Positions 42,063 to 63,952 of a stretch of 64,000 nucleotides of DNA are shown here, piece by piece. Position 1 is the stretch's first letter. Each line of letters begins with the position of its first letter. The notes under the pieces were generated by a model. That model was not told the DNA's origin. It was given only the letters and a program-made list of their open reading frames with translations, and made no database searches. The stretch is from Gammaproteobacteria bacterium (GTDB taxonomy: Bacteria > Pseudomonadota > Gammaproteobacteria > QZLD01): positions 25,788 to 89,787 of the forward strand of contig JAWSVC010000012.1 of NCBI GenBank assembly GCA_033852075.1, written 5' to 3'. Made by a program: the position numbers and the translations under genes.

Positions 42063-42635
42063 ATGGAATTAAAAGGTAGTAAAACCGAAAAAAATCTTAT
42101 GGCTTCGTTTGCAGGTGAGTCTCAAGCAAGAAACCGTTATACCTATTTTGCTGCTAAGGCTAGAAAAGAAGGTTATAGGCAAATAGCGGAAATCTTTGAA
42201 GAGACTGCGAATCAAGAAAAAGAACATGCTAAGCGTTTCTTTAAGTTTTTGCAGGGTGGTGACGTAGAGATTGTTGCTTGTTTTCCTGCTGGTGTAATTG
42301 GGTGTACTGTTGATAATCTAAAGGCTGCTGCTTGCGGTGAAAATGAAGAGTGGACTGAACTTTATCCAGAATTTGCTAAAACAGCAAGAGAAGAAGGGTT
42401 TGATAAGATTGCAGATGCTTGGGATGCAATTTCTATTGCTGAAAAACAGCATGAGAAACGTTATAGAGATCTTGCAAAAAATATTGAAGAAGGAAAAGTC
42501 TTCCAAAAAGATGGAGTTGTTACTTGGCGTTGTCTAAACTGTGGTTATCTGCATCAGGGAGATGCGGCACCAGAAGTTTGTCCAGCTTGTGTTCATCCTC
42601 AAGCTCATTTTGAGCTGTTTGGAGAAAACTATTAG
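42063..42635 (+). CDS. rbr: Rubrerythrin
   Basis: FAGESQARNRY, EKEHA, EKQHEKRY, C-terminal rubredoxin domain CLNCG..CPAC. Confidence 0.97.
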   Translation: MELKGSKTEKNLMASFAGESQARNRYTYFAAKARKEGYRQIAEIFEETANQEKEHAKRFFKFLQGGDVEIVACFPAGVIGCTVDNLKAAACGENEEWTELYPEFAKTAREEGFDKIADAWDAISIAEKQHEKRYRDLAKNIEEGKVFQKDGVVTWRCLNCGYLHQGDAAPEVCPACVHPQAHFELFGENY

Positions 42636-42680
42636 TTCGGAAATAAACATTTTCGTGGCAATAATAAATAAGGAGTTATT

Positions 42681-43055
42681 ATGACTACCAGAAACGAAGT
42701 GTATAAATGCAACCTTTGTGGAAATATTGTTACTGTTTCTCATCAAGGTCCAGGTGAGCTCGTTTGTTGTAATCAACCTATGAATCTTAGAACCGAAAAT
42801 ACAACCGATGCGGCAACAGAAAAGCATGTTCCAGTTGTTAAAAAGGTCGATGGCGGTTATAAGGTTACTGTAGGTGAGGTTATGCATCCAATGCAAGATG
42901 ATCACTATATTGAGTGGATTGAATTGATTGCAGGCGATGTTGTGCTAAGGGAATACCTAAAACCAAATCAAGATCCAGTTGCAGTATTTAAAACTGATGC
43001 AAATAATGTTGTTGTTAGAGAATATTGTAATTTGCACGGGTTGTGGAAGGCTTAG
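42681..43055 (+). CDS. dfx: Desulfoferrodoxin (2Fe superoxide reductase)
   Basis: YKCNLCGN..LVCC desulforedoxin domain, EKHVP, HPMQDDHYIEWI, YCNLHGLW. Confidence 0.97.
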   Translation: MTTRNEVYKCNLCGNIVTVSHQGPGELVCCNQPMNLRTENTTDAATEKHVPVVKKVDGGYKVTVGEVMHPMQDDHYIEWIELIAGDVVLREYLKPNQDPVAVFKTDANNVVVREYCNLHGLWKA

Positions 43056-43074
43056 TAATTTCTATTTTGTTATT

Positions 43075-43105
43075 AAAAAAACCCCGGCATTTGCCGGGGT
43101 TTTTT
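43075..43105. terminator. Bidirectional terminator between dfx and amtB
   Basis: AAAAAAACCCCGGCA-TT-TGCCGGGGTTTTTT. Confidence 0.9.
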
Positions 43106-43139
43106 ATTAAGTATCTCAATAAAGAGATTAGGAGTGACA

Positions 43140-44408
43140 CTATTTTGAAGAAGTAAATTCTGGGTAAGCTTCCATACCGCAATCGATAAGGTCCATACCT
43201 TCGTACTCTTCTTCTTCTGTTACCCTGATACCCATTACAGCTTTGATAATAGCCCATACTATGATGCTAACACCAAATACCCATGCGAAGATTGTAACCG
43301 CACCAACGATCTGACCTACAAATGTTGAGTCGCTGTTAGTTACTGGAACAAGAAGCAGACCAATCAAACCGCAAACACCGTGTACAGATAGAGCTCCAAC
43401 TGGATCGTCTATTTTTAGCTTGTCGATGGTTACGATAGCTACAACAACCGCGATACCGCCAATTACTCCAAATAGTGAAGCTAAAAGTGGTGTTGGAGTT
43501 GATGGTTCTGCTGTGATAACAACAAGTCCTGCAAGTGCGCCGTTAAGTAGCATGGTTAAATCAGCCTTTCCGAACCAAAGTCTAGCAAGTATCATTGCTG
43601 CAATTGAACCTGCAGCTGCGGCTGCGTTAGTGTTAAGGAATACCATTGCAACTGAATGTGAGCTAGCTATATCGCCTAGTTTTAGAACTGAACCACCGTT
43701 AAATCCAAACCAGCCCATCCATAGGATAAAGGTACCTAGTGCTGCAAGAGGTAAGTTTGAACCAGGGATTGCGTTGATTGATCCATCTTTGCCGTATTTA
43801 CCTTTACGAGCACCAAGTAATAATACTGCTGCTAGAGCTGCTGATGCACCTGCAAGGTGAACAATGCCTGAGCCAGCGAAGTCAGAGAAACCAAGATCTC
43901 CAAGGTTAAATAGACCAAATACATCGCTACCGCCCCAGGTCCATGCTCCTTCCATAGGATAGATGAATGCTGTCATTACAACTGAAAATAGAAGGAAAGC
44001 CCAAAGCTTCATTCTTTCAGCTACCGCACCAGATACGATTGACATAGCGGTTGCTACGAATACAACTTGGAAGAAGAAGTCAGATGCTGCTGAGTATACT
44101 GAGTCTCCATCAAAGCCGTTTTCTGCAGAAGATGCCAGAGCATTTTTAACGAAGTCGTCACCGCCCATGATTCCATCAAGCAGGAAACCGCCGCCATACA
44201 TAATTTCGTAACCGCAAATTAAATACATAATGCAGGCTACGGAGTATAGTGCCACGTTTTTGGTTAAAATTTCTGTGGTGTTTTTGGCTCTAACCAGACC
44301 TGATTCCAGCATGGCGAAACCTGCTGCCATCCACATTACCAATGCGCCGCATATCAAAAAGTAAAAGGTATCGATCGCATATTGAAGTTCAAAAATTTGA
44401 TTTTCCAC
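43140..44408 (-). CDS. amtB: Ammonium transporter
   Basis: SGAVAER, DFAGSGIVH, WMGWFGFNGGS, DDPVGALSVHG. Confidence 0.97.
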   Translation of the reverse strand: MENQIFELQYAIDTFYFLICGALVMWMAAGFAMLESGLVRAKNTTEILTKNVALYSVACIMYLICGYEIMYGGGFLLDGIMGGDDFVKNALASSAENGFDGDSVYSAASDFFFQVVFVATAMSIVSGAVAERMKLWAFLLFSVVMTAFIYPMEGAWTWGGSDVFGLFNLGDLGFSDFAGSGIVHLAGASAALAAVLLLGARKGKYGKDGSINAIPGSNLPLAALGTFILWMGWFGFNGGSVLKLGDIASSHSVAMVFLNTNAAAAAGSIAAMILARLWFGKADLTMLLNGALAGLVVITAEPSTPTPLLASLFGVIGGIAVVVAIVTIDKLKIDDPVGALSVHGVCGLIGLLLVPVTNSDSTFVGQIVGAVTIFAWVFGVSIIVWAIIKAVMGIRVTEEEEYEGMDLIDCGMEAYPEFTSSK

Positions 44409-44458
44409 TGTACTTCTCCTAAAAAAATGAGTTCTTAGTTTCTGGAAATTAATGAGGG

Positions 44459-44821
<363 letters not shown>

Positions 44822-44858
44822 TTACTAACATTGCAAAAGTTGCACTTAAAACAAATTT

Positions 44859-44875
44859 TGCATATGCCGTGCCAA
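44859..44875 (-). promoter_or_regulatory. Sigma54 promoter of glnK-amtB
   Basis: Minus strand TTGGCACGGCATATGCA, with correct GG-N10-GC spacing. Confidence 0.8.
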
Positions 44876-44969
44876 ACTCGCAAGTGTCGGTAATTAAAGA
44901 GAATAATGCTGATTTTTGTTAAAATAACAAATGTTTTTATGCTCAGTTATTGGGAGTTAACGGAAATGA

Positions 44970-44998
44970 TGCACAAAATAGTGCACTTAAATAGGGCG
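44970..44998. promoter_or_regulatory. NtrC-type enhancer site(s)
   Basis: TGCACAAAATAGTGCA overlapping TGCAC-TTAAATA-GGGCG, about 100-125 bp upstream of the sigma54 promoter. Confidence 0.65.
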
Positions 44999-45135
44999 AT
45001 TAATGTTGGATAATTTATTGTGTGATTGTCTTTAAAATTTTATGGATTTTGATATTAATCAATATTGCTTGGTGTAATTAAGAGTATGTGATTTATAGTA
45101 ATTTAAATATGTATTATTAATTAAAGAGCGAAAAC

Positions 45136-47760: not shown

Positions 47761-47892
47761 TTTTTTTAATTCCCAATATTTAACTTTAGTTTGAATTTAA
47801 TGGTTTTGTTGGGAATTTGAAAATTGGTCTTAAAATTTATTTATTATGTGATTTATAAGTCATTTTAGCCACGCCCTCCTTGCGCTGAAAAA

Positions 47893-47939
47893 TGTTATGT
47901 TGTAACAAATCAAATAACATGTTATGTTATAATGTAACA
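47893..47939. promoter_or_regulatory. Two TGTTA-N5-TAACA palindromes upstream of thioredoxin
   Basis: TGTTATGTTGTAACA (47893-47907) and TGTTATAATGTAACA (47925-47939). Confidence 0.5.
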
Positions 47940-47956
47940 ATATAAAGGAGGTCAAC

Positions 47957-48307
47957 ATGGCTATAACATATTTGAATAAAGGCAATCATAAAGAAATCAT
48001 CGAAAATAACCATATTGTGATAATAGATTTTTGGGCACCATGGTGTGGTCCGTGTCAAATGTTCGGCCCGATATTTGAAAAAGTATCTGATAATCATGCA
48101 GATGTTGTTTTTGCAAAGTGTGATACTCAAGAAGAACAGGAGCTTGCCGGAGCATTTAGAATCCGTTCTATACCTACTATTATGGTATTTAAGCAAGAAA
48201 CATTAGTATTTAATCAGTCTGGTATGCTAACTGAACCGGCCTTGAATGAACTAATTGAAAAGGTTAAGGAATTAGATATGGCAGAGCTTGAAAAACAGGG
48301 TGGCTAA
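47957..48307 (+). CDS. Thioredoxin
   Basis: FWAPWCGPC; RBS AAAGGAGG. Confidence 0.95.
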   Translation: MAITYLNKGNHKEIIENNHIVIIDFWAPWCGPCQMFGPIFEKVSDNHADVVFAKCDTQEEQELAGAFRIRSIPTIMVFKQETLVFNQSGMLTEPALNELIEKVKELDMAELEKQGG

Positions 48308-48383: not shown

Positions 48384-51095
48384 ATGAGAAAAGGGATTAT
48401 AAGATTTTCATTAAAACATCCAGAGATAGTATTTGCGGTTGTTTTTGCAATATCACTGTTTCTGGTTTGGCAGATACCAAAGATTAAGGTTGATACTGAT
48501 CCGGAAAATATGCTTTCTGAACAACAGGAAGATAGGGTTCTACATAATCAAATCAAAAAACGCTTTAATCTAAGTGATTCTATCGTTGTTGGGTTGGTTA
48601 ATGAGGATAAAAATGGAGTTTTTAATCCTACATCTTTAAAGCTTATTTCTGAGTTAACATCTAAAATTCTCGCGATAAAAGGCGTAGTCGCGCCTGATCT
48701 GATGTCAGTAAGTACCGTTGATAATATAACTCAGGAAGGTGAGGGTACTATCCGTTTTCAATGGATGATGCAAACACCGCCGAAAGATATCGAGCAATCT
48801 CAACAGATTCGCAAAGCCATTTTAAATCTTCCCTTATTAAAAAACACCTTGGTTTCTGAAGATGGAAAGGCAACTGCAATCTATGTCCCTATTACTGATA
48901 AACACGAAAGTCATCGGATAGCGACAGAGATTAAACAGATAATCTCAGATTTAAGCCCAGGTGTGAACGATAAGTTATATATAACGGGTCTTCCTGTGGC
49001 GGAAGATACATTTGGGGTGGAGATGTTTTCTCAGATGTCTCTTTCAGCTCCTTTAGCAGGAGCGGTTATCTTTTTATTAATGTGGTGGTTTTTCCGCAGC
49101 GTAACCTTAATTTCTGCACCTATGGTTATGGCAGTGGTTACAGTTGTATGTACTATGGGAGCTTTGATAGGTATGGGATTTACCGTGCATATTATGAGCT
49201 CGATGATTCCGATATTTTTAATGCCGATAGCTGTGCTTGATTCTGTGCATATTCTTTCTGAATTTGCAGATAGATATAAAATTGGAGATGACCCTGCCGA
49301 GGTGGTTGATGAAGTTATGAGTCATCTGTTTACCCCGATGTTATATACATCGCTTACCTCAGCAGTCGGTTTTGCCTCTCTTGCTTTTACTCCAATCCCA
49401 CCGGTTAAGGTATTTGGTGCATTCGTTGCTGGCGGTATAGTTTCGGCATTTTTATTAACAATAACCTTTATTCCTGCTTTTATAGTCAGTCTTTCAGAAA
49501 AACGGTTAAAGGTTCTCGCCGATGCAGCTAAAAAGGCAGAGGATTCAAAGGCAGGGATGGCAAAAATATTGCCAAAACTTGGTCTAACAGCCACTTCTTA
49601 TCCGAAGATAATCATAAGTATTGTGGTAATTATTTGTGTTATTAGCGCATATGGCATTACCAGAATCAAGATAAATGATAATCCCGTACGCTGGTTTAAG
49701 GAACATCATGAGATTCGTGTGGCCGACAAGGTTTTAAATAAGCATTTTGCTGGAACCTATGATGCATTTCTGGTGCTAACCAATACTTCGCAAGATGATT
49801 TATATAGATCATTTAATCAAAATGTCGATCAGATAATTAAAAATGCACTACCTACTATAGATCTTCAGGGGAATTGGAAGCAGTTAAAGGAATCGGTAAG
49901 TAACAGACCGGTTTTAGAACAGCTGGAAACCATTTCTGCCGAAATAGATGACATAATTTTCGAGTCGGAACCTGATGTGGAAAGGGTATGGCAACAAGTG
50001 CTGAATAAGCTTGAAGTAACATATAAAAAGGTAAAATATTTTCAGTCTCCTAAGGCTATTAAGTTGGTTGAAGACCTGCAGGAAACATTGTTGGAAAGTG
50101 GTTATGTTGGTAAAACAAACTCTTTTGCTGACTTGGTAAAAACCGTATATAGAGAGTTAAAAGGTGGAAAGCCCATTAATTATCTGGTTCCGGATAGTTC
50201 AGCAGCTGTTGCGCAAACAGTGCTTAGTTTTCAGTCATCGCACAGGCCAAATGATTTATGGCATATGATTACTCCAGATTATAGTTCAGCAGCAATATGG
50301 ATCCAGCTTAAAAGCGGTGACAATATTGATATGGAGGCGGTAGAGAAGGTTGTTGATGAGTATGTAAAAGCAAATCCGTTACCAGATGACCTAAAACTAG
50401 AGTGGGGTGGTCTAACCTATATAAATGTTGTCTGGCAAGGTGAAATGGTAGAGGGGATGATCTCAAGTCTTTTAGGGTCATTCGTAATCGTTTTTGTGAT
50501 GATGATTGTTTTGTTCCGTTCTATTAAGTGCGGATTGCTGGCGATGATTCCGCTAAGTGTAACTATTGCCTTTATATATGGCATTATTGGCCTTGTTGGT
50601 AAGAATTATGATATGCCGGTTGCTGTATTGTCATCTCTAACACTGGGATTGTCTGTAGATTTTGCCATTCACTTTATTCAGCGGATGCGGGATATAAATA
50701 AGGAAACAAATGATTGGCACCAAACCATAAAGGATTTATTTGCCGAGCCTGCTCGGGCTATTAGTAGAAACGCTATTGTAATTGCTATTGGATTTACTCC
50801 ATTGTTGGCCGCTCCACTAGTTCCATATATGACGGTAGGTTTTTTTCTGGCAGCAATTATGGCTGTTTCTGCAGTTGTGACGCTTTTTATTCTGCCGGCT
50901 ATTGTTGTTGTCGGTAATAGAATGACTAAGATAAAGGCGGAAAATCCTTTAGCTGTTGATGTAGTAAAAGAAGTTTTTGTACCGGAAGAAACCTCTGTAC
51001 CAGAAGAAATTGTTTCACCAGAAAAAACAGGGGGTGGATCAGAACAAGAACAATTTGAAGAAATTTCATCGGAACAAGATAGGAAGGATGTTTGA
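48384..51095 (+). CDS. MMPL/RND-superfamily exporter
   Basis: Two TM bundles; PIAVLDSVHILS, TSLTSAVGF, GLSVDFAIHF; large periplasmic loops. Confidence 0.9.
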   Translation: MRKGIIRFSLKHPEIVFAVVFAISLFLVWQIPKIKVDTDPENMLSEQQEDRVLHNQIKKRFNLSDSIVVGLVNEDKNGVFNPTSLKLISELTSKILAIKGVVAPDLMSVSTVDNITQEGEGTIRFQWMMQTPPKDIEQSQQIRKAILNLPLLKNTLVSEDGKATAIYVPITDKHESHRIATEIKQIISDLSPGVNDKLYITGLPVAEDTFGVEMFSQMSLSAPLAGAVIFLLMWWFFRSVTLISAPMVMAVVTVVCTMGALIGMGFTVHIMSSMIPIFLMPIAVLDSVHILSEFADRYKIGDDPAEVVDEVMSHLFTPMLYTSLTSAVGFASLAFTPIPPVKVFGAFVAGGIVSAFLLTITFIPAFIVSLSEKRLKVLADAAKKAEDSKAGMAKILPKLGLTATSYPKIIISIVVIICVISAYGITRIKINDNPVRWFKEHHEIRVADKVLNKHFAGTYDAFLVLTNTSQDDLYRSFNQNVDQIIKNALPTIDLQGNWKQLKESVSNRPVLEQLETISAEIDDIIFESEPDVERVWQQVLNKLEVTYKKVKYFQSPKAIKLVEDLQETLLESGYVGKTNSFADLVKTVYRELKGGKPINYLVPDSSAAVAQTVLSFQSSHRPNDLWHMITPDYSSAAIWIQLKSGDNIDMEAVEKVVDEYVKANPLPDDLKLEWGGLTYINVVWQGEMVEGMISSLLGSFVIVFVMMIVLFRSIKCGLLAMIPLSVTIAFIYGIIGLVGKNYDMPVAVLSSLTLGLSVDFAIHFIQRMRDINKETNDWHQTIKDLFAEPARAISRNAIVIAIGFTPLLAAPLVPYMTVGFFLAAIMAVSAVVTLFILPAIVVVGNRMTKIKAENPLAVDVVKEVFVPEETSVPEEIVSPEKTGGGSEQEQFEEISSEQDRKDV

Positions 51096-51096
51096 T

Positions 51097-51885
51097 ATGA
51101 AAAATATATTTTTAGCTTTAATTCTGTTAGCACAATTTGGTCATGCTCAGGCAGAGGATTTTACCGATGTTAATTTTATAGTGCGTTTTGCTAATCTGGC
51201 CTCTTATTATGCTGGTGACGATGGTCAATCAAAAGTACGTATGACCATTGTTGATCAAAATGGTAATAAACAGCGCCGTCAGTTTTCCATGGTTAGAAAA
51301 GATGTGACTGAAGGAGGTGATCAAAACTTTTTAATTAAGTTTTCCAAACCAGCGGATGTAAGGGATACCGTATTTATGGTTTCTAAACATATCGGTAGAG
51401 ATGATGATAGATGGTTATATTTACCAAGTATCGATTTAGTTAAGCGTATAGCAGCAGGTGATAAACGCACTAGTTTTATTGGATCACATTTCTTTTATGA
51501 GGATGTATCAGGTAGAGGATTGGATGAAGACGATCATAAACTTATCGAAACCACAGATAAGGAATACATAGTAGAGAATACTCCTAAACAACCAGAAAGT
51601 GTTGAATTTCAATCTTATAAACTATGGATAGACAAGGTCTCATTTATTCCAAATAAGATTGAGTATTACAACAAGGTTGGCAAGCTATATCGAAAAGTTG
51701 AAACTGTTGAAATAGAGAATATTCAGGGTTTTCAGACTGTGGTTAGATCTAAAATTACAGACATTCAGACAGGTGGATATACACTGATGGAATTTAAAGG
51801 TGTTGAATATAATGTTGGTATTCCTGCGGATATCTTTACTGAACGGTCATTGCGTAATCCTCCAAGGAAGTGGTTAGGGAAGTAG
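51097..51885 (+). CDS. Outer-membrane lipoprotein-sorting (LolA-like) protein
   Basis: Signal peptide MKNIFLALILLAQFGHAQA; DDDRWLYLP..VKRIA..DKRTSFIGSHFFYED. True start is 51097, not 50977. Confidence 0.85.
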   Translation: MKNIFLALILLAQFGHAQAEDFTDVNFIVRFANLASYYAGDDGQSKVRMTIVDQNGNKQRRQFSMVRKDVTEGGDQNFLIKFSKPADVRDTVFMVSKHIGRDDDRWLYLPSIDLVKRIAAGDKRTSFIGSHFFYEDVSGRGLDEDDHKLIETTDKEYIVENTPKQPESVEFQSYKLWIDKVSFIPNKIEYYNKVGKLYRKVETVEIENIQGFQTVVRSKITDIQTGGYTLMEFKGVEYNVGIPADIFTERSLRNPPRKWLGK

Positions 51886-51894
51886 GATGTTATT

Positions 51895-53184
51895 GTGCAA
51901 GTACTTAAATATATAACATCTTTGTTTATTGCCTTAACTTTATGTTTTTCACTTCCTGTCATTGCAGATGACTGGGATGATGATTGGGGTGATGAAGAAG
52001 AGCAGCAGGGGGGGGAGTTGCATGGTTTTGTTTCTATTGGATTAGGTGCATACACCGATAATAATGTTGCGCAAACTAATGACGATCTTTCACAGGCAGA
52101 TCTGATTTCACGGTTGGAGCTTAGTCATCTTTGGAAAAATATTGACTTGAACTTAAAGGTTGATGCTCATGCTGATGGAGTGGTTGATGATTATCAGCTA
52201 AATTTTAGAGAAGCTACCGCAAAATATTCTTGGGATAGTATTGATTTAACCGTTGGGCGCCAGGTATTAACATGGGGAACTGGAGATTTATTGTTTATTA
52301 ATGACTTATTTCCAAAAGATTATCAATCATTTTTTGCAGGTAGAGATCTTGAATATTTAAAAGCTCCGTCAGATGCTGTAAAGCTTGGGTATTTTGGAAA
52401 TATTTTTAATATCGATATGATTTGGATGCCAGAATTTGAATCAGATGTATTTCTTACCGGGGAACGTTTTTCCTATTTTTCACCTCAGGCAGGGCAAATA
52501 GTTGCAGCCCCACCTGAGATATCACCAGTACAGCCAAGCGAAAAATTATCCAATAGCGAGTTAGCGATTAGAATATATGATCGTTATAAAGGAATAGAGT
52601 GGGCGCTTTATGGGTATCGTGGGTTTTGGGGGCAACCCACAGCAATGGATAACAGTGGAAATCCAACATTTGCGAGATTAAATGCTTATGGAGCAAGCTT
52701 AAGGTCAACGTTATTGGGTGGAATTGGAAATGCTGAAATAAGTTATTACCAGTCAAGTCAGGATAAATCCGGTACAAATCCATTAATACCAAATGATCAA
52801 ATGCGATTACTTATTGGTTATGAGAGAGAATTAATACCCAAACTAACCCTCGGTCTTCAATATTATATTGAGCATATTCTAGATCATGATGAACTTTTGA
52901 ATAATTCATATTTTCCTCAGTATGAGCAGGACAAAAGTCGGCATTTAATAACAACTAGATTAAATTACCGTATGCAGCGAGACCAGCTGCAATTGTCATT
53001 ATTTGTATTTTATTCACCGACGGATCAAGATGGATATTTGCGTCCCGCAATATCTTATCGGATTGATGATAATTGGAGTATTGATGCAGGTGCTAATATC
53101 TTTTCGGGAAAAGAGAAAAATACATTTTGGGGGCAGTTTGATAAAAATGACAATATTTATGCACGAATAAGGTTTGGCTTTTAA
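51895..53184 (+). CDS. Predicted outer-membrane beta-barrel protein
   Basis: Signal peptide, GRQVLTWGTGDL, amphipathic strands, C-terminal YARIRFGF. Confidence 0.75.
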   Translation: MQVLKYITSLFIALTLCFSLPVIADDWDDDWGDEEEQQGGELHGFVSIGLGAYTDNNVAQTNDDLSQADLISRLELSHLWKNIDLNLKVDAHADGVVDDYQLNFREATAKYSWDSIDLTVGRQVLTWGTGDLLFINDLFPKDYQSFFAGRDLEYLKAPSDAVKLGYFGNIFNIDMIWMPEFESDVFLTGERFSYFSPQAGQIVAAPPEISPVQPSEKLSNSELAIRIYDRYKGIEWALYGYRGFWGQPTAMDNSGNPTFARLNAYGASLRSTLLGGIGNAEISYYQSSQDKSGTNPLIPNDQMRLLIGYERELIPKLTLGLQYYIEHILDHDELLNNSYFPQYEQDKSRHLITTRLNYRMQRDQLQLSLFVFYSPTDQDGYLRPAISYRIDDNWSIDAGANIFSGKEKNTFWGQFDKNDNIYARIRFGF

Positions 53185-53395: not shown

Positions 53396-53908
53396 ATGCT
53401 AAGTGAAAAAATGGTAACAAAACTAAATGATCAGATTGGTATAGAGTTTTTTTCATCAAATATATATCTGCAGATGTCAGCATGGGCAGACAGTCAAGGT
53501 CTTGAGAATTGTGCAGCATTTTTTAGAGAGCATGCAACAGAAGAAATGATGCATATGCAGAAGATGTTTGACTATATGTGTGAAAAAGGAGCAATGCCTG
53601 TTTTAGGTCAAATTGACAAACCAAAAGCAGACTATGTATCTATTCATGAAGTTTTTGAACAAGCATATGAACATGAAAAGTTTGTTACAGGAACTATTAA
53701 TGACCTTGTTAGTGTGTCGTATGAAGAGAAAGACTGGGCAACATTTAATTATTTACAGTGGTTTGTTGCAGAGCAGGTAGAGGAAGAAGCTTTATTTAGC
53801 AAGGTTCTAGATAAAATCAAACTTATTGGAACTGGTGGCGAATCTTTATACTTTCTTGATCAAGAAATTGGAACATTTGTTGGTGGAGAATCTAAGTCAG
53901 GAACATAA
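53396..53908 (+). CDS. ftnA: Non-heme ferritin
   Basis: EFFSSNIYLQMSAW, EEMMH, HEKFVT, LQWFVAEQVEEE. Confidence 0.95.
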   Translation: MLSEKMVTKLNDQIGIEFFSSNIYLQMSAWADSQGLENCAAFFREHATEEMMHMQKMFDYMCEKGAMPVLGQIDKPKADYVSIHEVFEQAYEHEKFVTGTINDLVSVSYEEKDWATFNYLQWFVAEQVEEEALFSKVLDKIKLIGTGGESLYFLDQEIGTFVGGESKSGT

Positions 53909-53997
53909 GTTTTAGTAAAGTAATAACTTACATTAAAGGTTGCGGATTGTTGTGTATTTTCTATTCGTATAATTACAATTAATTAATGAGGATAATA

Positions 53998-54459
53998 ATG
54001 ACTCTTAATATTAATGATATAGCACCAAAATTTATATTAAATAATCAGGATGATTCTCAAGTTAATCTTGAACAATATAAGGGACAAAAGGTATTGCTAT
54101 ATTTTTATCCTAAAGCGGATACTCCTGGATGTACCAAGCAGACATGCCTTTTAAATGATAATCTTGGACAACTAAATCAGCTTAATGTGGTGGTTCTTGG
54201 GATTAGCCCTGACAAGGTCGAGAAACAGAAAAAATTTGCTGATAAATATGGAATTAATTTTTCATTGCTAAGTGATGAAGGTCATAATGTGGCTGAGTTA
54301 TATTCGGTTTGGGGTGAAAAAAAGATGTACGGTAGGTCATATATGGGGATAATACGCTCTGCGTTCCTTATAAATGAAGAAGGAAAAATTAGTGAAACCT
54401 GGTATAAGGTTTCGCCAAAAGATACCGTGACGAAAGCATTAAAAAAGCTTGAATCATAA
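53998..54459 (+). CDS. bcp: Thioredoxin-dependent thiol peroxidase (Bcp/PrxQ)
   Basis: YFYPKADTPGCTKQTC, GISPD, WGEKKMYG..GIIRS. Confidence 0.95.
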   Translation: MTLNINDIAPKFILNNQDDSQVNLEQYKGQKVLLYFYPKADTPGCTKQTCLLNDNLGQLNQLNVVVLGISPDKVEKQKKFADKYGINFSLLSDEGHNVAELYSVWGEKKMYGRSYMGIIRSAFLINEEGKISETWYKVSPKDTVTKALKKLES

Positions 54460-54622: not shown

Positions 54623-54946
54623 ATGGCAGTTGTAAATATCACATCACAGGCATATGAAGAAGCTATTCAAAAATATGAAATCGTAATCATTGATTTTTGG
54701 GCAACATGGTGTGGTCCATGTAAAGCATTTGGCCCTGCATTTGAAGCTGTTGCAGAAAAGGTAACTGCTGAAAACTCAAATATTCTTTTCGCTAAATGTG
54801 ATACCGAACAAGAAAGTGAACTTGCCGCAAAGTTTCGTATTAGATCCATTCCAACAGTTGTTGTGATTAAGAATGGCGAAATTGCGGAAGTTAAGATGGG
54901 CGCAATGTCTCAGTCACAATTCGAGCAGTTTGTAGCTGGAATTTAA
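54623..54946 (+). CDS. Thioredoxin (second paralogue)
   Basis: FWATWCGPCK; preceded by hairpin TCTGGTTGTAAT..ATTACAACCAGA (54561-54593) and RBS AAGGAG. Confidence 0.95.
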   Translation: MAVVNITSQAYEEAIQKYEIVIIDFWATWCGPCKAFGPAFEAVAEKVTAENSNILFAKCDTEQESELAAKFRIRSIPTVVVIKNGEIAEVKMGAMSQSQFEQFVAGI

Positions 54947-54991: not shown

Positions 54992-56185
54992 ATGAAAACA
55001 GATTATCTCATTATCGGTAATGGTATTGCCGGAACTACCGCAGCTGAAAATATCAGGAAAATTGATGCGCAGGCGCAAATTTTTATTGTTACTAATGAGC
55101 ACACTCCATTCTATTCAAGGATTAGATTACCTGAATATATAGCGGGTGATATCACTAAAGATAAATTAGTGGTTAGAAAGGAAAGCTGGTATCAGGAAAA
55201 AAATATAACTTTGTGTACCGGTGTGCAAATTGCCTCTATTGATATTGATGAGAAAGTTGCAATTGCCGAAGATGGACAAAGATTTGAATTTGATAAGTTA
55301 CTTTATGCTGCTGGCAGCCATTCATTTATTCCCAGAATTAATGGTAATACTTTAGATGGTGTTTTTGCGCTAAGAAATATTGATGATGCAGAAAGAATAA
55401 TTGAATACAAGAATGGTAAATCATCCATAGTGATACTAGGTGGTGGTTTATTAGGCCTTGAAATTGGCTATTCAATGATTCAGTGTGGACTGAAAGTTAC
55501 GGTTGTCGAACTTTCAGATCATTTATTGCCTAAGCAGATTGATAAAGAAGGCGGAGCATTCCTGAAAAAACAATTGGAAAAAATTGGATTCAATTTTATT
55601 TTAGGAGATGCTGCTACAGAGATTGTTGGTAATCAACAAGCGCAAGTAGAACGTGTTATTTTAAAAAGCGGTATGGTTATACCTACTGATATGGTTTTAG
55701 TATCTGCTGGTGTGAGGCCAAATCTTGAACTGGCAAAGAATTCAGGAATTAAAACTAATATTGGCCTGATAATAGATAAGAACTTACATACTAGTGCGCA
55801 AGATATATATGCTGCTGGTGATCTTATTGAATTTGAAAGCAGTTTATACGGCAGTTGGATGATTGCTATGGAGCAAGGAAAGCTTGCTGCTTTGAATATG
55901 ACAGGCAATAGTGTCTATTATACTGGTTCTGTAATGTCAATGATGCTAAAAGTTGTTGGTATTGAATTGGGATCTGTAGGTAACCACGATCCTGAGCATA
56001 AGTTAGAATCTGACTTTATTCATACCGATGATTCATTTAAAAGAATCATTTTTGATAAAGAAAAGGTTGTTGGGTGTGTGATGATTGGTAATAAAAAAGG
56101 TTTTCTTCAAATATCAAAACATATTGCTCAAGGTGATTTGGTATCAGAGATAGCCCCGGAACTTTTGCAGCTAACACCGCAGTAA
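54992..56185 (+). CDS. NAD(P)H/FAD-dependent oxidoreductase, rubredoxin-reductase (NROR)-like
   Basis: IGNGIAG, YSRIRL, GGGLLGLE, GVRPN, IYAAGD; close to rubredoxin. Confidence 0.85.
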   Translation: MKTDYLIIGNGIAGTTAAENIRKIDAQAQIFIVTNEHTPFYSRIRLPEYIAGDITKDKLVVRKESWYQEKNITLCTGVQIASIDIDEKVAIAEDGQRFEFDKLLYAAGSHSFIPRINGNTLDGVFALRNIDDAERIIEYKNGKSSIVILGGGLLGLEIGYSMIQCGLKVTVVELSDHLLPKQIDKEGGAFLKKQLEKIGFNFILGDAATEIVGNQQAQVERVILKSGMVIPTDMVLVSAGVRPNLELAKNSGIKTNIGLIIDKNLHTSAQDIYAAGDLIEFESSLYGSWMIAMEQGKLAALNMTGNSVYYTGSVMSMMLKVVGIELGSVGNHDPEHKLESDFIHTDDSFKRIIFDKEKVVGCVMIGNKKGFLQISKHIAQGDLVSEIAPELLQLTPQ

Positions 56186-56199
56186 TTAAAGGAAACCAA

Positions 56200-56691
56200 A
56201 TGAATTCATCTGATAATGGAATAATTGAGATTATAGATAAAGGAATAGAGCTTGAGCTTCTATTGTCTGATCTATATATGGGATTTAGTGAGTATTTTAA
56301 AGATGACCGAGATTTCTGGTGGAGATTGTCGGTTGAAGAAAAGCATCATGCATCATTTTTAGAAAGTGGGAAAGAGGTGCTTTTACCATTCGATAAGTTT
56401 CCTAAAGAGATTTTACCTAAAAGTTTGGAAGAGCTTAATCAGGTAAGTAATCAAATAAAAAAAGTGATTTGTTATTGTGAAGATAAATCGATATCTCGTG
56501 AGGAAGCTTTTAACTATGCAGTTTATATTGAAGGTTCTGCTGGAGAGGCGCATTATCAATCTGCATTAGAAAAAGATATTGATTCTGACGTAATACGTGT
56601 CTTTCATGTGCTAAATGAGGGAGATAAAAACCATAAACAGCGAATTTTAGCGTACATGAAAGAGCGCGATATCTCTATAAATGAAGAATAA
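56200..56691 (+). CDS. Ferritin-like/rubrerythrin-family di-iron protein
   Basis: E..L..LY..F, FWWRLSVEEKHHA, E..A..GEAHYQ, DKNH motifs. Confidence 0.75.
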   Translation: MNSSDNGIIEIIDKGIELELLLSDLYMGFSEYFKDDRDFWWRLSVEEKHHASFLESGKEVLLPFDKFPKEILPKSLEELNQVSNQIKKVICYCEDKSISREEAFNYAVYIEGSAGEAHYQSALEKDIDSDVIRVFHVLNEGDKNHKQRILAYMKERDISINEE

Positions 56692-56717
56692 TTTTTTAAT
56701 AATAATTGGAGTTTTTT

Positions 56718-56879
56718 ATGAAAAAGTATGTATGTGATGTTTGTGGATATATATATGATCCTGAGGCAGGAGATCCTGATAATGACATAGAGCCAGGCAC
56801 AGTTTGGGAAGATGTACCTGAAGGTTGGATTTGTCCATTATGTGGTGCTGGAAAAAATGACTTTAGTGAGGTTGAATAA
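56718..56879 (+). CDS. Rubredoxin (53 aa, below the ORF-track cut-off)
   Basis: Manual translation [53 protein letters not shown]; RBS GGAG. Confidence 0.97.
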
Positions 56880-57835: not shown

Positions 57836-57838
57836 TAT

Positions 57839-58570
57839 ATGTTCTTCAACTTCGCAAGATCAAGAGATAATAAGCCAGAAAAAAAGCAAAGATTGCACTT
57901 TATCCAACATGTTGAGTTTGAATCAATAGGTATTATAGAGGATTGGGCTTTAGAAAAAGGAATGGATATTACATCGACAAAGATGTATCTCGACGAAGAA
58001 CTTCCAGATAGAAATGAACTAAGAGATATTGATATTCTTTTAATAATGGGTGGTCCCATGAATATTTATGAATATGCTGAATATCCATGGTTGAAGGAAG
58101 AAAAAATCTTTTTAAAAAAGGCGATAAGAGAAGCCACTATATTTAAAAAATTGGCCATTGTTGGTATTTGTCTTGGAGCTCAACTCATATCTGATGCTTT
58201 AGGGGGTACTGTAAGCCAGAACCAATATAAAGAGATTGGGTGGTTTCCTATAAGATCAACTAATGATCTTTTACCTGATGATATTAGTGTTTTTCATTGG
58301 CATAACGATACTTTTTCAATACCAAAAGGTGCTAGTTGTATTGCTTATAGTGAAGGGTGTGCTAATCAGGCATTTATTTATAAACAGCAGGTAATTGGTC
58401 TTCAGTTTCATCTTGAGTTGACAATGGATAATATAAATACCATATATACTAACTGCGTAAATGAATTGGAATCAGGCCCTTATATTCAAAAGCAAAACAT
58501 TTCTGATTCCAGAAGAATTAATACCGCTAATGGCGTTATAACAGAAATATTAGAGAAAATGCTTAAGTAA
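57839..58570 (+). CDS. Type 1 glutamine amidotransferase-like protein
   Basis: MGGPMN, GICLGAQL, HWHNDTF, LQFHLE. Confidence 0.9.
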   Translation: MFFNFARSRDNKPEKKQRLHFIQHVEFESIGIIEDWALEKGMDITSTKMYLDEELPDRNELRDIDILLIMGGPMNIYEYAEYPWLKEEKIFLKKAIREATIFKKLAIVGICLGAQLISDALGGTVSQNQYKEIGWFPIRSTNDLLPDDISVFHWHNDTFSIPKGASCIAYSEGCANQAFIYKQQVIGLQFHLELTMDNINTIYTNCVNELESGPYIQKQNISDSRRINTANGVITEILEKMLK

Positions 58571-58607
58571 TTGTGTTTAAAATGTCAGGCATGAATCTGT
58601 ATTTGCA

Positions 58608-58622
58608 TGTTATTTTATAACA
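58608..58622. promoter_or_regulatory. TGTTA-N5-TAACA palindrome upstream of the hydrogenase operon
   Basis: TGTTATTTTATAACA. Confidence 0.4.
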
Positions 58623-58743
58623 ATTTGTTTTGTTTAAATATTTATTCCAATAATTCCTCCCCAAATTTCCGCATACAATGAAAAACTGTTCTATATTTAA
58701 AATAATAATTATTAGTTATTAATCCAATCCCAGGGAGGGACAT

Positions 58744-60402: not shown

Positions 60403-60425
60403 TTGCAGCTACGGAGAGTATAACA

Positions 60426-62276
60426 ATGAGTGAAAATGGAAAAATGGTTACTGCAACTATCGATGATATTCAGGTTAGTGTACCTGAAGGGACAACTATT
60501 CTTAACGCAGCAAAAGGTGTTGGTATTAAGATTCCGACTCTATGTAATCACGATGATTTAAAACCAAAAGGGTTGTGTAGGGTTTGTGTTGTTGAGATTG
60601 AAGGTTATAGGAATTTGCAAACATCCTGCACCATGCCTTTAGAAGAGGGTATGGTAATTAATACCAATAGCCACACGGTGAGAAAAGCGAGACGTGATCT
60701 TGTTGATCTGGAACTTTCAAATCATACCGGCACATGTTACACATGTAATCGTAGTCGTAACTGCACATTAAGAGAATTAGCTGATGAATGTGGAGTAACT
60801 GAATTTAGATTTGGTGAAAAGCAAAAGGCTGAGCATAGAATTGAGGATTCAGGACTCTTTATTGTGCGCGATATGAATAAATGCGTGCAGTGTCGTAACT
60901 GTGAAAGAGCATGTAAAGAGCTTCAGGCAGTTGGTGCTTATGATATGAAAGATCGCAGCAATAAGATTAAGATTGCTGCGTTTGCAGATAAAGATTTGGA
61001 AGATACTGTATGTATAAATTGCGGTCAGTGTATTACCCACTGTCCAACTGGTGCTTTGTCGGTTAAGGATGAGGTTGCAAAGGTCTGGCAAATGATTGAA
61101 GATCCAACCAAACATGTGGTAATTCAAACTGCTCCGGCTCCAAGGTCTGCTATCGGTGAATGTTTTGGTAATGAGCCTGGTGAAGCGGCAATGACATTTC
61201 AGTTGGCTACAGCACTTCGTCGTTGTGGTTTCGATAGTGTATTTGATACAACTTTTACAGCTGATTTAACAATCATTGAAGAGGCAACCGAACTTCTTAT
61301 CAGACTGAAAAAGGCATTGGTAGATAAGGATGAAACAGTAGCTTTGCCGCAGTTTACCAGTTGTTCTCCTGGTTGGATTAAATACTTAGAACACTTTAAA
61401 CCAGAGATGATTCCAAATGTATCTTCAGCTAAAAGCCCACAGCAGATGTTTGGTGCAGTAATTAAGACCTACTATGCGCAAAAGAATAACATTGATCCTA
61501 AAGATATTGTATCTGTTGCTTTAATGCCTTGCGTGGCGAAAAAATTTGAATGCAGTCGTCCGGAGATGAACGATAGCGGATACAAAGATGTTGATATTGT
61601 TCTTACAACAGAAGAAGCAGCGGGAATGATTAAAGAGGCTGGTATGGATCTGCGTAAGGTGCCAAAGGGTAAGTATGATGATCCTTTTGGAGTATCAACA
61701 GGTTCTGGTGTGATTTTTGGAGCAACAGGTGGTGTAATGGAAGCTGCGCTTAGAACTGCTGCAGAGCTTATAACCGGGCTAAAAATTGAAGATCTGTTTG
61801 AGCATGCAAACATTACTCCTGTGCGTGGTTTTGAAGGTTCCAGAATTGCAGAAATTACATTAGATCAGGTTGGTGAAGTGCCAGAAATTCTTAAAGGTCA
61901 TTTTAATGATTGGGAATGGCTGAAAGGCGCGACTTTGAAAGTTGGTGTCGCGCATGGTACTGCTAATGCCAAGAAGGTACTGGCAGATATTGAAGCCGGC
62001 GGTCCATTCAGTGAATGTCATTTTATTGAGTTTATGGGATGTCCTGGCGGATGTCTAGCGGGTGGAGGTATGCCGCGCCCAGTAAATATGGATGTGCGTG
62101 AGGCTCGTGCTAAATTAATATATGAAGAGGATATGAATTACGAATATCGTAAATCGCATGAAAACCCTGAAGTGGCTCATTTATATCAAGAGTTTTTCAC
62201 TGAAGGCCCTTGCGGTCATAAGTCTCATGAGTTACTGCATACTCACTATACCGCAAGAGGTAGGTTAATTGATTAG
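60426..62276 (+). CDS. hydA: Group A [FeFe]-hydrogenase catalytic subunit
   Basis: N-terminal 2Fe-2S, HxxxCxxCxxxxxC, 2x[4Fe-4S]; H-cluster motifs FTSCSPGW, MPCVAKKFE, EFMGCPGGCLAGGG; C-terminal RKSHENP..LLHTHY. Confidence 0.96.
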   Translation: MSENGKMVTATIDDIQVSVPEGTTILNAAKGVGIKIPTLCNHDDLKPKGLCRVCVVEIEGYRNLQTSCTMPLEEGMVINTNSHTVRKARRDLVDLELSNHTGTCYTCNRSRNCTLRELADECGVTEFRFGEKQKAEHRIEDSGLFIVRDMNKCVQCRNCERACKELQAVGAYDMKDRSNKIKIAAFADKDLEDTVCINCGQCITHCPTGALSVKDEVAKVWQMIEDPTKHVVIQTAPAPRSAIGECFGNEPGEAAMTFQLATALRRCGFDSVFDTTFTADLTIIEEATELLIRLKKALVDKDETVALPQFTSCSPGWIKYLEHFKPEMIPNVSSAKSPQQMFGAVIKTYYAQKNNIDPKDIVSVALMPCVAKKFECSRPEMNDSGYKDVDIVLTTEEAAGMIKEAGMDLRKVPKGKYDDPFGVSTGSGVIFGATGGVMEAALRTAAELITGLKIEDLFEHANITPVRGFEGSRIAEITLDQVGEVPEILKGHFNDWEWLKGATLKVGVAHGTANAKKVLADIEAGGPFSECHFIEFMGCPGGCLAGGGMPRPVNMDVREARAKLIYEEDMNYEYRKSHENPEVAHLYQEFFTEGPCGHKSHELLHTHYTARGRLID

Positions 62277-62417
62277 GAATCTATAATTTACTGCCTGCGG
62301 TAATTAATCGCTGTGTTGGGCGGTGCTCACAATCCTCATGTATTACATATACACTCCGGTTGCTGCGCTCCGTCCGCCTTGTGCTTAATCACCTCGGCTA
62401 ATAAATTAATGATTCCT
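62275..62417. repeat. 143-bp palindromic MITE/RPE-like element
   Basis: Terminal IR AGGAATC/GATTCCT with nested complementarity (AATTTA/TAAATT, GGCGG/CCGCC). Core GCTCACAATCCTCATGTA..TACACTCCGGTTGCTGCGCTCCG resembles Rickettsia-palindromic-element-like repeats (from memory). Confidence 0.7.
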
Positions 62418-62462
62418 TGAGATTTTGCACAACACTGTAGTAATAAATTTTAGCCATTGAAA

Positions 62463-62487
62463 ATATCTGACTAAAATAGTCGGAATA
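62463..62487. promoter_or_regulatory. IscR type-1-like (Rrf2) site upstream of hydG
   Basis: ATATCTGACTAAAATAGTCGGAATA vs ATASYYGACTRWWWYAGTCRRSTAT: 20/25, with a perfect GACT-N5-AGTC core. Confidence 0.6.
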
Positions 62488-62502
62488 ATTGTTGTAACTA
62501 AC

Positions 62503-62530
62503 CGAAGAGCCTGCTAATGTAGGCTCTTCG
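62503..62530. other. 12-bp hairpin in the hydG leader
   Basis: CGAAGAGCCTGC-TAAT-GTAGGCTCTTCG (one G-U pair), no U-tail. Confidence 0.55.
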
Positions 62531-62572
62531 TCCTTATGGACATTGTGTTTAATACCTATTTTGAGAAAAAAT

Positions 62573-63952
62573 ATGACTGCTATTATTGATGATAAAAAAA
62601 TACTTCAGGAATTAGAAAACGCTTCACAAGATCAAGCAAAGGTTAAAGAAGTGCTTGCAAAAGGGCGAGAACTGAAAGGATTATCATTAAGTGAAGTTGC
62701 TGTCTTATCCAATATTACCGATCCAGACCTGGTTCAGGAATTGTTCGAAACTGCGAAATACGTTAAAGAAGAGATTTACGGAAATCGTCTAGTTATTTTT
62801 GCTCCACTGTATATTTCTAATCTTTGTGCAAATGAGTGTTCATACTGTGCGTTCAGGGCTGGAAATAAAGCAATTCATCGTCGTGTACTGAATCAGGCAG
62901 AGATTGCGGAAGAAACCAGAATTTTAATCGAAAGTGGTCATAAACGTGTGCTAATGGTTGCTGGTGAATCATATCCAAAACAAGGCTTCAATTATGTCCT
63001 GGATTCAATAGATACCATATACAGTGTAAAAGACGCTCACGGCAGTAGTATACGCAGAATCAATGTTAATGTAGCTCCGCTTACAGTTGAAGAATTTAAG
63101 TTGCTGAAAGGAAAAGGGATTGGTACATATCAAATCTTTCAGGAAACTTATAATCGTGATGTATATAGCAAGGTGCATCTGCGTGGTAAAAAGACAGATT
63201 TTGACTGGCGTGTAACTGCGATTGATCGTGCTATGGAAGCAGGTATAGATGACTGCGGTGTTGGAGTGCTATTCGGATTAGCGGAATGGAAGTATGAAAT
63301 ATTAGCACTTATGCAACATATCAATTACCTGGAAGATAAATTTGGTGTGGGGCCGCACACCATTAGTGTACCCCGTATGGAGTTTGCAACAGGATCTGCT
63401 ATATCAGAACACCCTCCGGCAGAGGTTTCTGATGAGGACTTTTTAAAGATTGTTGCCATTTTGCGTATAGCGGTTCCATATACCGGAATTATTATGTCGA
63501 CTCGTGAAGGACCAAGTCTACGAGGCAGAACTTTGGATTTGGGTGTGTCGCAAATTTCTGCAGGAAGTCGTACTAACCCAGGTGGATACTCTGATGATCA
63601 TGAAGATATGAGTCAGTTTTCACTTGGTGATCACCGTTCATTAGATGAAGTGATCCGAGATATTACCCAAAAAGGCTATATACCTTCGTTTTGCACAGGT
63701 TGTTATCGACTGGGTAGAACAGGTGAGGATTTCATGGATCTTGCTAAACCTGGTCTAATCAAACAGCACTGCGGCCCAAATGCAGCTTCATCGTTCATGG
63801 AATTCTTACGTGATTATGCCTCGGAAGAAACCAAAAATATCGGTATGGAAGCAATGGAGAAATTTATTGCTGAAATGGGCGAAAAAGAGCAGGAAGTTTC
63901 ACGCAAAATGGTTGATAAGGTTATTCATGGCAAAAATGATATTTATATCTAG
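62573..63952 (+). CDS. hydG: [FeFe]-hydrogenase H-cluster radical SAM maturase HydG
   Basis: FAPLYISNLCANECSYCAF radical-SAM motif, YQIFQETY, GPHTISVPR, C-terminal PSFCTGCYR..C; start probably ATG 62573. Confidence 0.96.
   Translation: MTAIIDDKKILQELENASQDQAKVKEVLAKGRELKGLSLSEVAVLSNITDPDLVQELFETAKYVKEEIYGNRLVIFAPLYISNLCANECSYCAFRAGNKAIHRRVLNQAEIAEETRILIESGHKRVLMVAGESYPKQGFNYVLDSIDTIYSVKDAHGSSIRRINVNVAPLTVEEFKLLKGKGIGTYQIFQETYNRDVYSKVHLRGKKTDFDWRVTAIDRAMEAGIDDCGVGVLFGLAEWKYEILALMQHINYLEDKFGVGPHTISVPRMEFATGSAISEHPPAEVSDEDFLKIVAILRIAVPYTGIIMSTREGPSLRGRTLDLGVSQISAGSRTNPGGYSDDHEDMSQFSLGDHRSLDEVIRDITQKGYIPSFCTGCYRLGRTGEDFMDLAKPGLIKQHCGPNAASSFMEFLRDYASEETKNIGMEAMEKFIAEMGEKEQEVSRKMVDKVIHGKNDIYI

Follow-up and report, generated by a model that had tools for sequence, protein, structure and literature searches.

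The reductive defence of Clostridium acetobutylicum and Desulfovibrio against oxygen species passes electrons from NADH to NADH:rubredoxin oxidoreductase (NROR), on to rubredoxin and from there to desulfoferrodoxin and rubrerythrin. A second described system of relevance here is the [FeFe] hydrogenase HydAB of Syntrophus aciditrophicus, which Losey et al. (PMC7311640) present as a dimeric, ferredoxin-independent, NADH-dependent and reversible enzyme that reduces NAD+ with H2, and in whose beta subunit a HydC-like N-terminal part is joined to a HydB-like module. The same study lists sequence marks that separate bifurcating beta subunits (A/E232, M234, F367, GGPSG and extra ferredoxin domains) from non-bifurcating ones (no GGPSG in the SLBB region, Tyr at position 367 of T. 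maritima HydB, Thr/Ser at "232" and Lys/Ser/Ala at "234"). The catalytic subunit of [FeFe] hydrogenases is recognized by the canonical motifs L1 TSCCPxW, L2 MPCxxKxxE and L3 ExMxCxxGCxxG, as quoted in PMC5506873. Here we describe a stretch of 64,000 nucleotides, called the window below, from a gammaproteobacterial genome (GenBank assembly GCA_033852075.1, contig JAWSVC010000012.1) in which counterparts of both systems, a set of reductive genes against reactive oxygen species (ROS) and an [FeFe] hydrogenase, occur within 22 kb. All genes that an earlier note had named at positions 42063-63952 were located there, with coordinates and curated-model support (Table 1).

The 22 kb hold three units among unrelated genes: the pair rbr-dfx; ferritin and bcp together with the run trx-NROR-P0001-rubredoxin; and hydB-hydA with hydG. 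We conclude, at a probability of roughly 0.75, that this gene set is the long-resident equipment of a small, strictly anaerobic, fermenting gammaproteobacterial family and that its three units are independent of one another. The region had been read as one cluster, which does not agree with what lies between its parts. For example, rbr-dfx and ferritin are separated by amtB, glnK, a hybrid histidine kinase gene and genes for an RND/MMPL-type transporter, a LolA-like protein and a 429-aa protein of no family, while a K+ channel gene, a GATase gene and then a 173-nt gap separate rubredoxin from hydB. The individual systems are known in kind and it is the host that is unusual. The result replaces the picture of a mobile "anaerobiosis kit" by that of a coherent, vertically kept anaerobe genome, and the lineage can serve as an example of how lifestyle has switched completely within the Gammaproteobacteria, which are known rather for aerobes and facultative anaerobes. 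It also singles out two testable proteins, a natural Ser variant of a NuoEF-fused, non-bifurcating-type [FeFe] hydrogenase and a nameless ferritin-like protein encoded between the genes for an NROR-like flavoprotein and rubredoxin.

Our observations are of gene identities, motifs, distribution and synteny. Gene identities were obtained from a list of open reading frames (ORFs) and profile searches with Pfam and NCBIfam models at their curated cut-offs. The host genome (G000) is a draft of 58 contigs, some with runs of N, that is rated 100% complete with an estimated contamination of 0.28%. It was compared with three further species of its genus (G001-G003) and a member of another genus of its family (G004), which together form a family set of five genomes; completeness is 99-100% for G000, G001 and G002, 82% for G003 and 85% for G004. 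The remaining 36 of the 40 relatives drawn are no nearer to the host than "same class". The assignment of the host to the Gammaproteobacteria is borne out by the polynucleotide phosphorylase (PNPase) encoded just upstream, which is 88% identical to that of a metagenome-assembled genome (MAG) titled "Gammaproteobacteria bacterium" and is sister to it in a FastTree tree of 80 rows. Other PNPase hits that were kept are 63-76% identical and nearly all titled Gamma- or Betaproteobacteria or Pseudomonadota; the comparators in this tree are pre-selected best hits, and its agreement is one of consistency rather than independent placement. No description of the lineage was found, by topic or isolate name, in the literature outside subscription journals.

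Gene content across the family is that of an anaerobe. Searches with hidden Markov model (HMM) profiles, in which control genomes gave the expected matches each time, detected none of the following in the five draft genomes: haem-copper oxidase subunit I (COX1), cytochrome bd subunit I, Fe/Mn superoxide dismutase, catalase, a flavodiiron protein (NorV model) and the large subunit of [NiFe] hydrogenase. The molybdopterin oxidoreductase domain is likewise unmatched in the four genomes searched for it (G000, G001, G002 and G004), leaving no formate dehydrogenase and no Nar-, Nap- or DMSO-type reductase, which is unusual for the class, and dsrA exceeded its cut-off in 0 of 4 genomes. Enzymes of the pyruvate:ferredoxin oxidoreductase (PFOR) type are present in 4 of 4 genomes, at two loci in the host, as is an RnfD/NqrB-type gene at one per genome. 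Thioredoxin reductase (TrxB) is encoded in all five genomes, away from the window block; the hydrogenase maturase HydE exceeds its cut-off in all five and HydF in four, with a partial match in the less complete G003. The fermentative lifestyle that had been suggested fits this content (no oxidase, no molybdenum enzyme, PFOR and an Rnf/Nqr-type gene), and the family is likely, judging from its genes, to consist of obligately anaerobic fermenters that have neither an O2 reductase nor molybdenum-dependent respiration. Since superoxide dismutase, catalase, bd oxidase and flavodiiron protein are all missing, the reductive route appears to be the main visible defence of the family.

The genes show no sign of recent arrival, and the window is probably ordinary chromosome of the host. 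A tblastn search with 23 window proteins against the corresponding regions recovered 19 in conserved order in each of G001 and G002, at 57-92% amino-acid identity. Local differences do occur: the K+ channel is absent from both relatives, pnp is adjacent in neither, G001 has extra DNA at two places and its locus is missing bcp, and the G002 locus is missing an orthologue of thioredoxin 1. The more distant G004 retains only hydB-hydA-hydG in the 20 kb fetched (3 of the 23 window proteins). Both rbr-dfx and hydB-hydA-hydG occur across the family. GC content in 2-kb bins is 0.315-0.400 in the region of the three units, 0.315-0.422 in the window and 0.351-0.451 across the contigs of the genome; there are no tRNAs and no Rfam families within the window, and no integrase or transposase families among the scanned ORFs. 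A recently acquired island is not supported by the ordinary GC, the lack of mobile genes among the scanned ORFs, the collinear block in two other species and the family-wide units.

The rarity in the class that the earlier note had assumed holds in part. Among evenly drawn samples of the class, the [FeFe] catalytic domain (Fe_hyd_lg_C) was found in 5 of 400 genomes (G000, G001, G002, G059 and G192) and the Desulfoferrodox domain also in 5 of 400 (G000, G001, G002 and two species of one other genus). Rubrerythrin-like genes, however, are not rare: full-length rubrerythrin exceeded its cut-off in 18 of 401 genomes and shorter rubrerythrin-like genes were present in 178 of 401. Two unpublished genomes, G043 and G145, are among those counted, and the result would stand without them. 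Because genes of the set are rare in the class, an old acquisition is probable. We infer from best-hit titles and class sampling that an ancestor of the family probably acquired the genes from non-proteobacterial anaerobes and that descent has been vertical since, the direction and age of transfer being the parts that are deduced. Beyond its kin, the proteins nearest to HydA share 63-67% identity with it and bear the titles Planctomycetota, Holophaga, Verrucomicrobia, Armatimonadota, Bacteroidales, Delta- and Betaproteobacteria and Azospirillaceae. The HydB fusion has relatives at 47-56% identity under the titles Magnetospirillum, Azoarcus, Thiorhodococcus, Imhoffiella, Halorhodospira, Tolumonas and Victivallales. 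The NROR-like protein is 54% identical to that of another gammaproteobacterial MAG and 46-50% identical to those of Desulfobacterales or Deltaproteobacteria MAGs. The earlier note had named two outcomes that would tell against it, a host from an obligately anaerobic lineage in which the genes are native and a chimeric contig; the host's own lineage does appear to be obligately anaerobic with the genes native to it, whereas a chimeric contig is exceedingly improbable.

Within the defence genes, rubrerythrin has the expected ExxH motifs at residues 52 and 127 and CxxC motifs at 157 and 173, and desulfoferrodoxin those of a 2Fe superoxide reductase (CxxC at 10, CC at 29, Hx5H at 69 and CxxH at 116). 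The two genes are 45 nt apart and adjacent in all five family genomes, on other contigs in G003 and G004. Bcp carries TPGC at 46 and Cx4C at 49. The run trx2-NROR-P0001-rubredoxin is tight, with intergenic gaps of 45, 14 and 14 nt. Its flavoprotein has the architecture of NROR, two dinucleotide-binding folds followed by a C-terminal rubredoxin-reductase domain (Pyr_redox_2 at 4-296, Pyr_redox at 145-226, Rubredoxin_C at 317-381, and GxGxxG/A at 9 and 150). The highest scoring model overall for this protein is the NirB N-terminus, at 274.1 bits against a cut-off of 578.35, and its closest solved relative is 3klj_A (E 1.7e-46), which we take to be the NROR of Clostridium acetobutylicum. We label it "NROR-like" because of this architecture, its position two genes upstream of rubredoxin in a tight run and its best solved relative.

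The window thus resembles the defence of C. acetobutylicum and Desulfovibrio in having an NROR-like flavoprotein, rubredoxin, a 2Fe superoxide reductase and rubrerythrin, and it differs from that defence in the lack of a flavodiiron O2 reductase (0 of 5 in the family), in an extra ferritin-like protein encoded between NROR and rubredoxin, and in its gammaproteobacterial host. The chain had been called complete, which goes too far, as the flavodiiron O2 reductase is unmatched in the family and thioredoxin reductase is encoded elsewhere. Electron flow and enzyme activities are read from the gene content. NADH would reduce the NROR-like flavoprotein and this in turn rubredoxin, which would in turn supply desulfoferrodoxin for the conversion of superoxide to H2O2, rubrerythrin for that of H2O2 to water and perhaps also the ferritin-like P0001. 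Additionally, TrxB would reduce thioredoxin and thioredoxin would reduce Bcp, while ferritin may keep Fe2+ from peroxide and limit Fenton chemistry.

P0001, a protein of 163 aa, matches no Pfam or NCBIfam model, and even Pfam Rubrerythrin (PF02915) is unmatched at E<=5. Its best sequence match in the Protein Data Bank is weak, a chain titled "bacterioferritin" at E 0.041. It nevertheless belongs to a real family: at E<=0.001, a search of representatives clustered at 50% identity gave 587 relatives. Seven residues are invariant in 76 aligned sequences (E19, Y26, E46, E47, H50, E111 and H145), which include a candidate ligand pattern of E19, E47-x-x-H50, E111 and H145, with D142 as a majority residue. 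Its AlphaFold (AF2) model is a helical bundle (mean model confidence, pLDDT, 91.5), the best fold matches of which are all ferritin-like: 1vjx_A at Z 12.2 and a root-mean-square deviation (rmsd) of 3.5 over 139 residues, 2fzf_B at Z 11.4 and 3q4o_A at Z 10.6. The highest of these scores does not reach the value of about 13 advised as decisive for helical bundles, and Foldseek gave nothing better than E 0.12 with the same model. Atlas neighbours of P0001 are called rubrerythrin-like, although only 11-14% of their members carry PF02915. P0001 shares a ferritin-like bundle, as modelled, and conserved Glu and His residues with the diiron-carboxylate proteins TM1526 (1vjx) and MJ0754 (3q4n, 3q4o and 3q4r), from which it differs in an identity of only 14-16% and in having no Pfam model; both are structural-genomics entries whose titles state no function. 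The family, the conserved Glu and His residues and the modelled fold make P0001 a probable diiron protein, as the earlier note had described it, but no curated model matches it.

Of 301 sampled Pseudomonadota, one, the host itself, has a member of the P0001 family. Orthologues occur in G001 and G002 at 76-78% identity, and one homologue is titled Thermodesulfobacteriota. At three metagenomic loci with P0001 homologues, obtained from a single-protein scan with P0122, the neighbours are unrelated genes, for HEPN, inositol monophosphatase, MltA, toxin-antitoxin proteins and a reverse transcriptase. From the location of its gene, with NROR on one side and rubredoxin on the other, P0001 may be a peroxide or O2 reductase that depends on rubredoxin, an assignment that we regard as putative and tentative. 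Equally tentative is a wider version of our reading, based on the gene content, according to which the family would have given up all O2-dependent and all molybdenum-dependent anaerobic respiration, would live by PFOR/[FeFe] fermentation with anciently assembled non-proteobacterial genes, and would use P0001 as a rubredoxin-dependent peroxide or O2 reductase in place of the flavodiiron protein.

The hydrogenase of the window is encoded by hydB and hydA, 23 nt apart, followed by hydG after 266 nt. HydB is composed of a NuoE-like [2Fe-2S] domain and a NuoF-like FMN/NADH/[4Fe-4S] module with no ferredoxin domain, so that it has the N-terminal HydC-like fusion and the fewer Fe-S domains of the non-bifurcating subunits. 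Residue equivalences, which were assigned by hand from alignments to bifurcating chains, place GGYSG at 433 where bifurcating subunits have GGPSG, and Tyr in GAGAYVCGE at 319 where the aligned bifurcating chains have GAGAFVCGE. The sequence EPGCFKD puts Lys, a residue of the non-bifurcating list, at "234" and Cys, which is on neither list, at "232". HydB does not carry the signatures of bifurcating HydABC. It is like S. aciditrophicus HydAB in the HydC/NuoE-NuoF fusion, the lack of GGPSG, Tyr at the flavin site and Lys at "234", and unlike it in having Cys for Thr/Ser, in its 552 aa as against a matching part that extends to residue 585, and in the number of [4Fe-4S] clusters predicted outside the H-cluster (four by domain count as against five). 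These features fit a dimeric, non-bifurcating, NADH-dependent HydAB type that would equilibrate NADH with H2 (NADH + H+ <-> NAD+ + H2).

A second [FeFe] hydrogenase locus, on host contig C23, is of the bifurcating HydABC type. It resembles the solved electron-bifurcating enzymes (7p5h, 7q4v and 8a6t) in its HydC, in a HydB that has a C-terminal ferredoxin domain and the sequences DPGAFMD, GAGAFVCGE and GGPSG, and in a HydA with canonical L1-L3 motifs; the window HydB has none of these HydB signatures. It is unlike them in that the [2Fe-2S]-like sequence expected at the N-terminus of HydB is encoded apart, in a 159-aa ORF ending 9 nt before hydB, as the result of a split gene or as a fourth subunit. 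The four genomes examined for the two hydA paralogues (G000, G001, G002 and G004) all have both at full length. The genome fits a pairing of a bifurcating-type HydABC with a non-bifurcating NADH-type HydAB, in which HydABC would couple NADH and reduced ferredoxin (from PFOR) to H2 alongside an Rnf/Nqr-type complex.

The window HydA has motifs L2 (MPCVAKKFE) and L3 (EFMGCPGGCLAGGGMP), while its L1 (TSCSPGW, residues 311-317, window 61356-61376) has Ser in place of the second Cys (Ser314, codon at 61365-61367). Alignment without gaps to solved chains titled "Iron hydrogenase 1" (1c4a and others), which we take to be Clostridium pasteurianum CpI, sets Ser314 against C300 and C313 against C299; C300 is a ligand of the [4Fe-4S] part of the H-cluster. 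This raises the alternative that HydA is a sensor or other redox protein rather than a working hydrogenase, the more so as the equivalent C115S exchange in Chlamydomonas reinhardtii HydA1 abolished [2Fe] insertion, stable cluster binding and measurable activity, according to Kertess et al. (PMC5855289). About 20% of putative hydrogenase sequences, on the other hand, have Ser here according to the same study, which considers it a possible alternative ligand. Moreover, L2, L3 and the neighbouring Cys are kept, HydA is without PAS-type sensory domains, hydG adjoins this type of hydA in all four relatives (G001-G004), and the same Ser is found in all 120 homologues listed (119 with TSCSPGW and one with TSCSPAW) as well as in G001, G002 and G004, as would be expected if it were selected. 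A loss of hydrogenase function is accordingly improbable in our judgment, and we treat HydA as a hydrogenase homologue with catalysis assumed from its sequence. The clade has cysteines that are missing from the canonical paralogue, C246 in 97%, C267 in 77%, C531 in 98% and C596 in 97%. Ser in L1 is not in itself new, given its reported frequency of about 20% (PMC5855289) and a mention of TSCSPGW in passing by Di Rienzi et al. No characterized enzyme carrying it was found.

As to how the hydrogenase and the defence genes relate, the earlier note had proposed an acquired "anaerobiosis kit" in which both form one coupled or mutually shielding module. All parts do lie within 22 kb, in an arrangement kept in G001 and G002, hydrogenase and ROS units both use the NADH pool, and few genomes of the class have an [FeFe] hydrogenase or a desulfoferrodoxin. 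Against this, the units are split by the genes listed above and by the gap before hydB; in G004 the hyd trio is on contig C180 and rbr-dfx on C289, with neither the NROR cluster nor other ROS genes in the roughly 15 kb beside hydB; the genes for HydE, HydF, TrxB and the second hydrogenase are dispersed on other contigs; and no compositional or mobile-element signature was found. We hold such a module to be very unlikely. The nearness of the units within the genus is probably one of neighbourhood and not that of a coupled machine, and the only tie between hydrogenase and defence genes in the sequence is the shared NADH pool. A looser version would have the two coupled through metabolites only, with uptake of H2 by HydAB regenerating NADH under O2 for detoxification by NROR and rubredoxin. 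NROR-type enzymes do use NADH, and no [NiFe] hydrogenase was matched in any of the five family genomes. According to PMC7311640, HydAB of S. aciditrophicus works in both directions and can use H2 to reduce NAD+. Nothing in the window points to such coupling, however, and a scan with a Rex operator consensus yielded 8 matches where chance alone predicts 7.34, with no match upstream of hydB. In addition, [FeFe] hydrogenases are generally inactivated by O2, which argues against the use of H2 when it would be needed. Coupling through metabolites is for these reasons doubtful.

An assembly chimera or contamination that joined anaerobe genes to a gammaproteobacterial contig would be a more trivial explanation. 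The genome is indeed a draft in 58 contigs with runs of N, and nothing else in favour of a chimera was found. The low estimated contamination, the recurrence of the gene order in two other species that were assembled independently (contigs of 151 and 258 kb), the uniform GC content and the presence of the core genes pnp, alaS, recX, dnaQ-like and rnhA on the same 216-kb contig as the block make it exceedingly improbable. Our preferred reading, that of three independent units long resident in an anaerobic family, has several points to its disadvantage. No NCBIfam equivalog reaches its cut-off for the NROR-like protein (NorW NF003437 at 164.7 against 392), and the link between P0001 and rubredoxin is drawn from one genus, with 0 of the 3 metagenomic homologue loci adjoining NROR or rubredoxin. 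Cys at HydB "232", where Losey et al. list Thr/Ser, agrees with the non-bifurcating type by analogy only, and the Ser in HydA replaces a cluster ligand of CpI whose equivalent exchange inactivated the C. reinhardtii enzyme. The absences in the family depend on HMM searches of draft genomes and weigh less in G003 and G004, and the ancient transfer is deduced from titles and sampling rather than from reconciled gene trees.

Table 1. Hydrogenase and defence genes, with a neighbouring gene and the second hydrogenase locus (window coordinates unless a locus is given)
Feature	Coordinates	Strand	Basis
Ferredoxin-domain protein, 2x[4Fe-4S], 253 aa	41104-41865	-	Pfam Fer4 families on residues 5-60; ~190 other residues unassigned
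Rubrerythrin, diiron domain and C-terminal rubredoxin-like domain	42063-42635	+	NF045767, 304.8 bits (cut-off 200)
Desulfoferrodoxin (2Fe superoxide reductase)	42681-43055	+	TIGR00320, 190.3 bits (cut-off 146.9)
Thioredoxin 1	47957-48307	+	TIGR01068, 107.9 bits (cut-off 96.8); WCGPC
Non-haem ferritin	53396-53908	+	NF007638, 189.6 bits (cut-off 178)
Bcp/PrxQ thioredoxin-dependent peroxidase	53986-54459	+	NF006960, 181.8 bits (cut-off 140)
Thioredoxin 2, first gene of tight run	54623-54946	+	TIGR01068, 102 bits (cut-off 96.8); WCGPC
NADH:rubredoxin oxidoreductase (NROR)-like flavoprotein	54992-56185	+	Pyr_redox_2, 195.2 bits; Rubredoxin_C, 41.9 bits
P0001, 163 aa, ferritin-like, probably diiron, unnamed family	56200-56691	+	Fold model and invariant residues
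Rubredoxin	56706-56879	+	NF045768, 102.2 bits (cut-off 90); CxxCG at 10 and 43
HydB, NuoE-NuoF fusion ("diaphorase"), 552 aa	58744-60402	+	2Fe-2S_thioredx 14-156; Complex1_51K 200-371; NADH_4Fe-4S 471-551
HydA, [FeFe]-hydrogenase catalytic subunit	60426-62276	+	NF040763, 767 bits (cut-off 765); Fe_hyd_lg_C, 274.3 bits
HydG, radical-SAM H-cluster maturase	62543-63952	+	TIGR03955, 520.4 bits (cut-off 312.15); Cx3Cx2C at 95
Second [FeFe] hydrogenase locus, bifurcating HydABC type	L089:10646-14757 (G000 contig C23)		HydC, HydB, HydA

Among the genes around the three units, that for the 253-aa ferredoxin-domain protein is divergent from rbr and stands beside it also in G001, G002 and G003; the protein is possibly associated with rbr-dfx. 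There are two P-II (GlnK/GlnB) genes in the window, at 32236-32574 and 44459-44797, the second of which is paired with amtB between rbr-dfx and the kinase gene. The genes at 48384-53184 encode an RND transporter (HAE3/MMPL-like), the LolA-like protein and the 429-aa protein, the last with faint DUF1302-like similarity, and their order is kept in G001 and G002. As regards regulation, a scan of the window for promoters and terminators gave nothing above shuffled sequences. A gene for a Rex-type redox-sensing repressor (NF003994, 240 bits, cut-off 130) is located about 8 kb downstream of hydG (L090:8137-8781, minus strand).

Elsewhere in the window, positions 34264-37738 encode a Na+-translocating oxaloacetate decarboxylase (gamma, alpha and beta subunits), a membrane-energising enzyme typical of anaerobes. 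The first 9 kb (window 2-9029) encode three large PAS/Cache sensor histidine kinases in a row, a single-domain response regulator and a receiver-kinase hybrid. An esterase of the PHB-depolymerase family is encoded at 32865-34043 and another, of 991 aa, about 11 kb past the window end (L090:11296-14271). Between both esterases is a tandem duplicate module, each copy with a FabI-like reductase and three MaoC-like dehydratases (L090:2863-5074 and 5907-8099). Together, the esterases and tandem modules hint at polyhydroxyalkanoate breakdown and crotonyl/hydroxyacyl metabolism.

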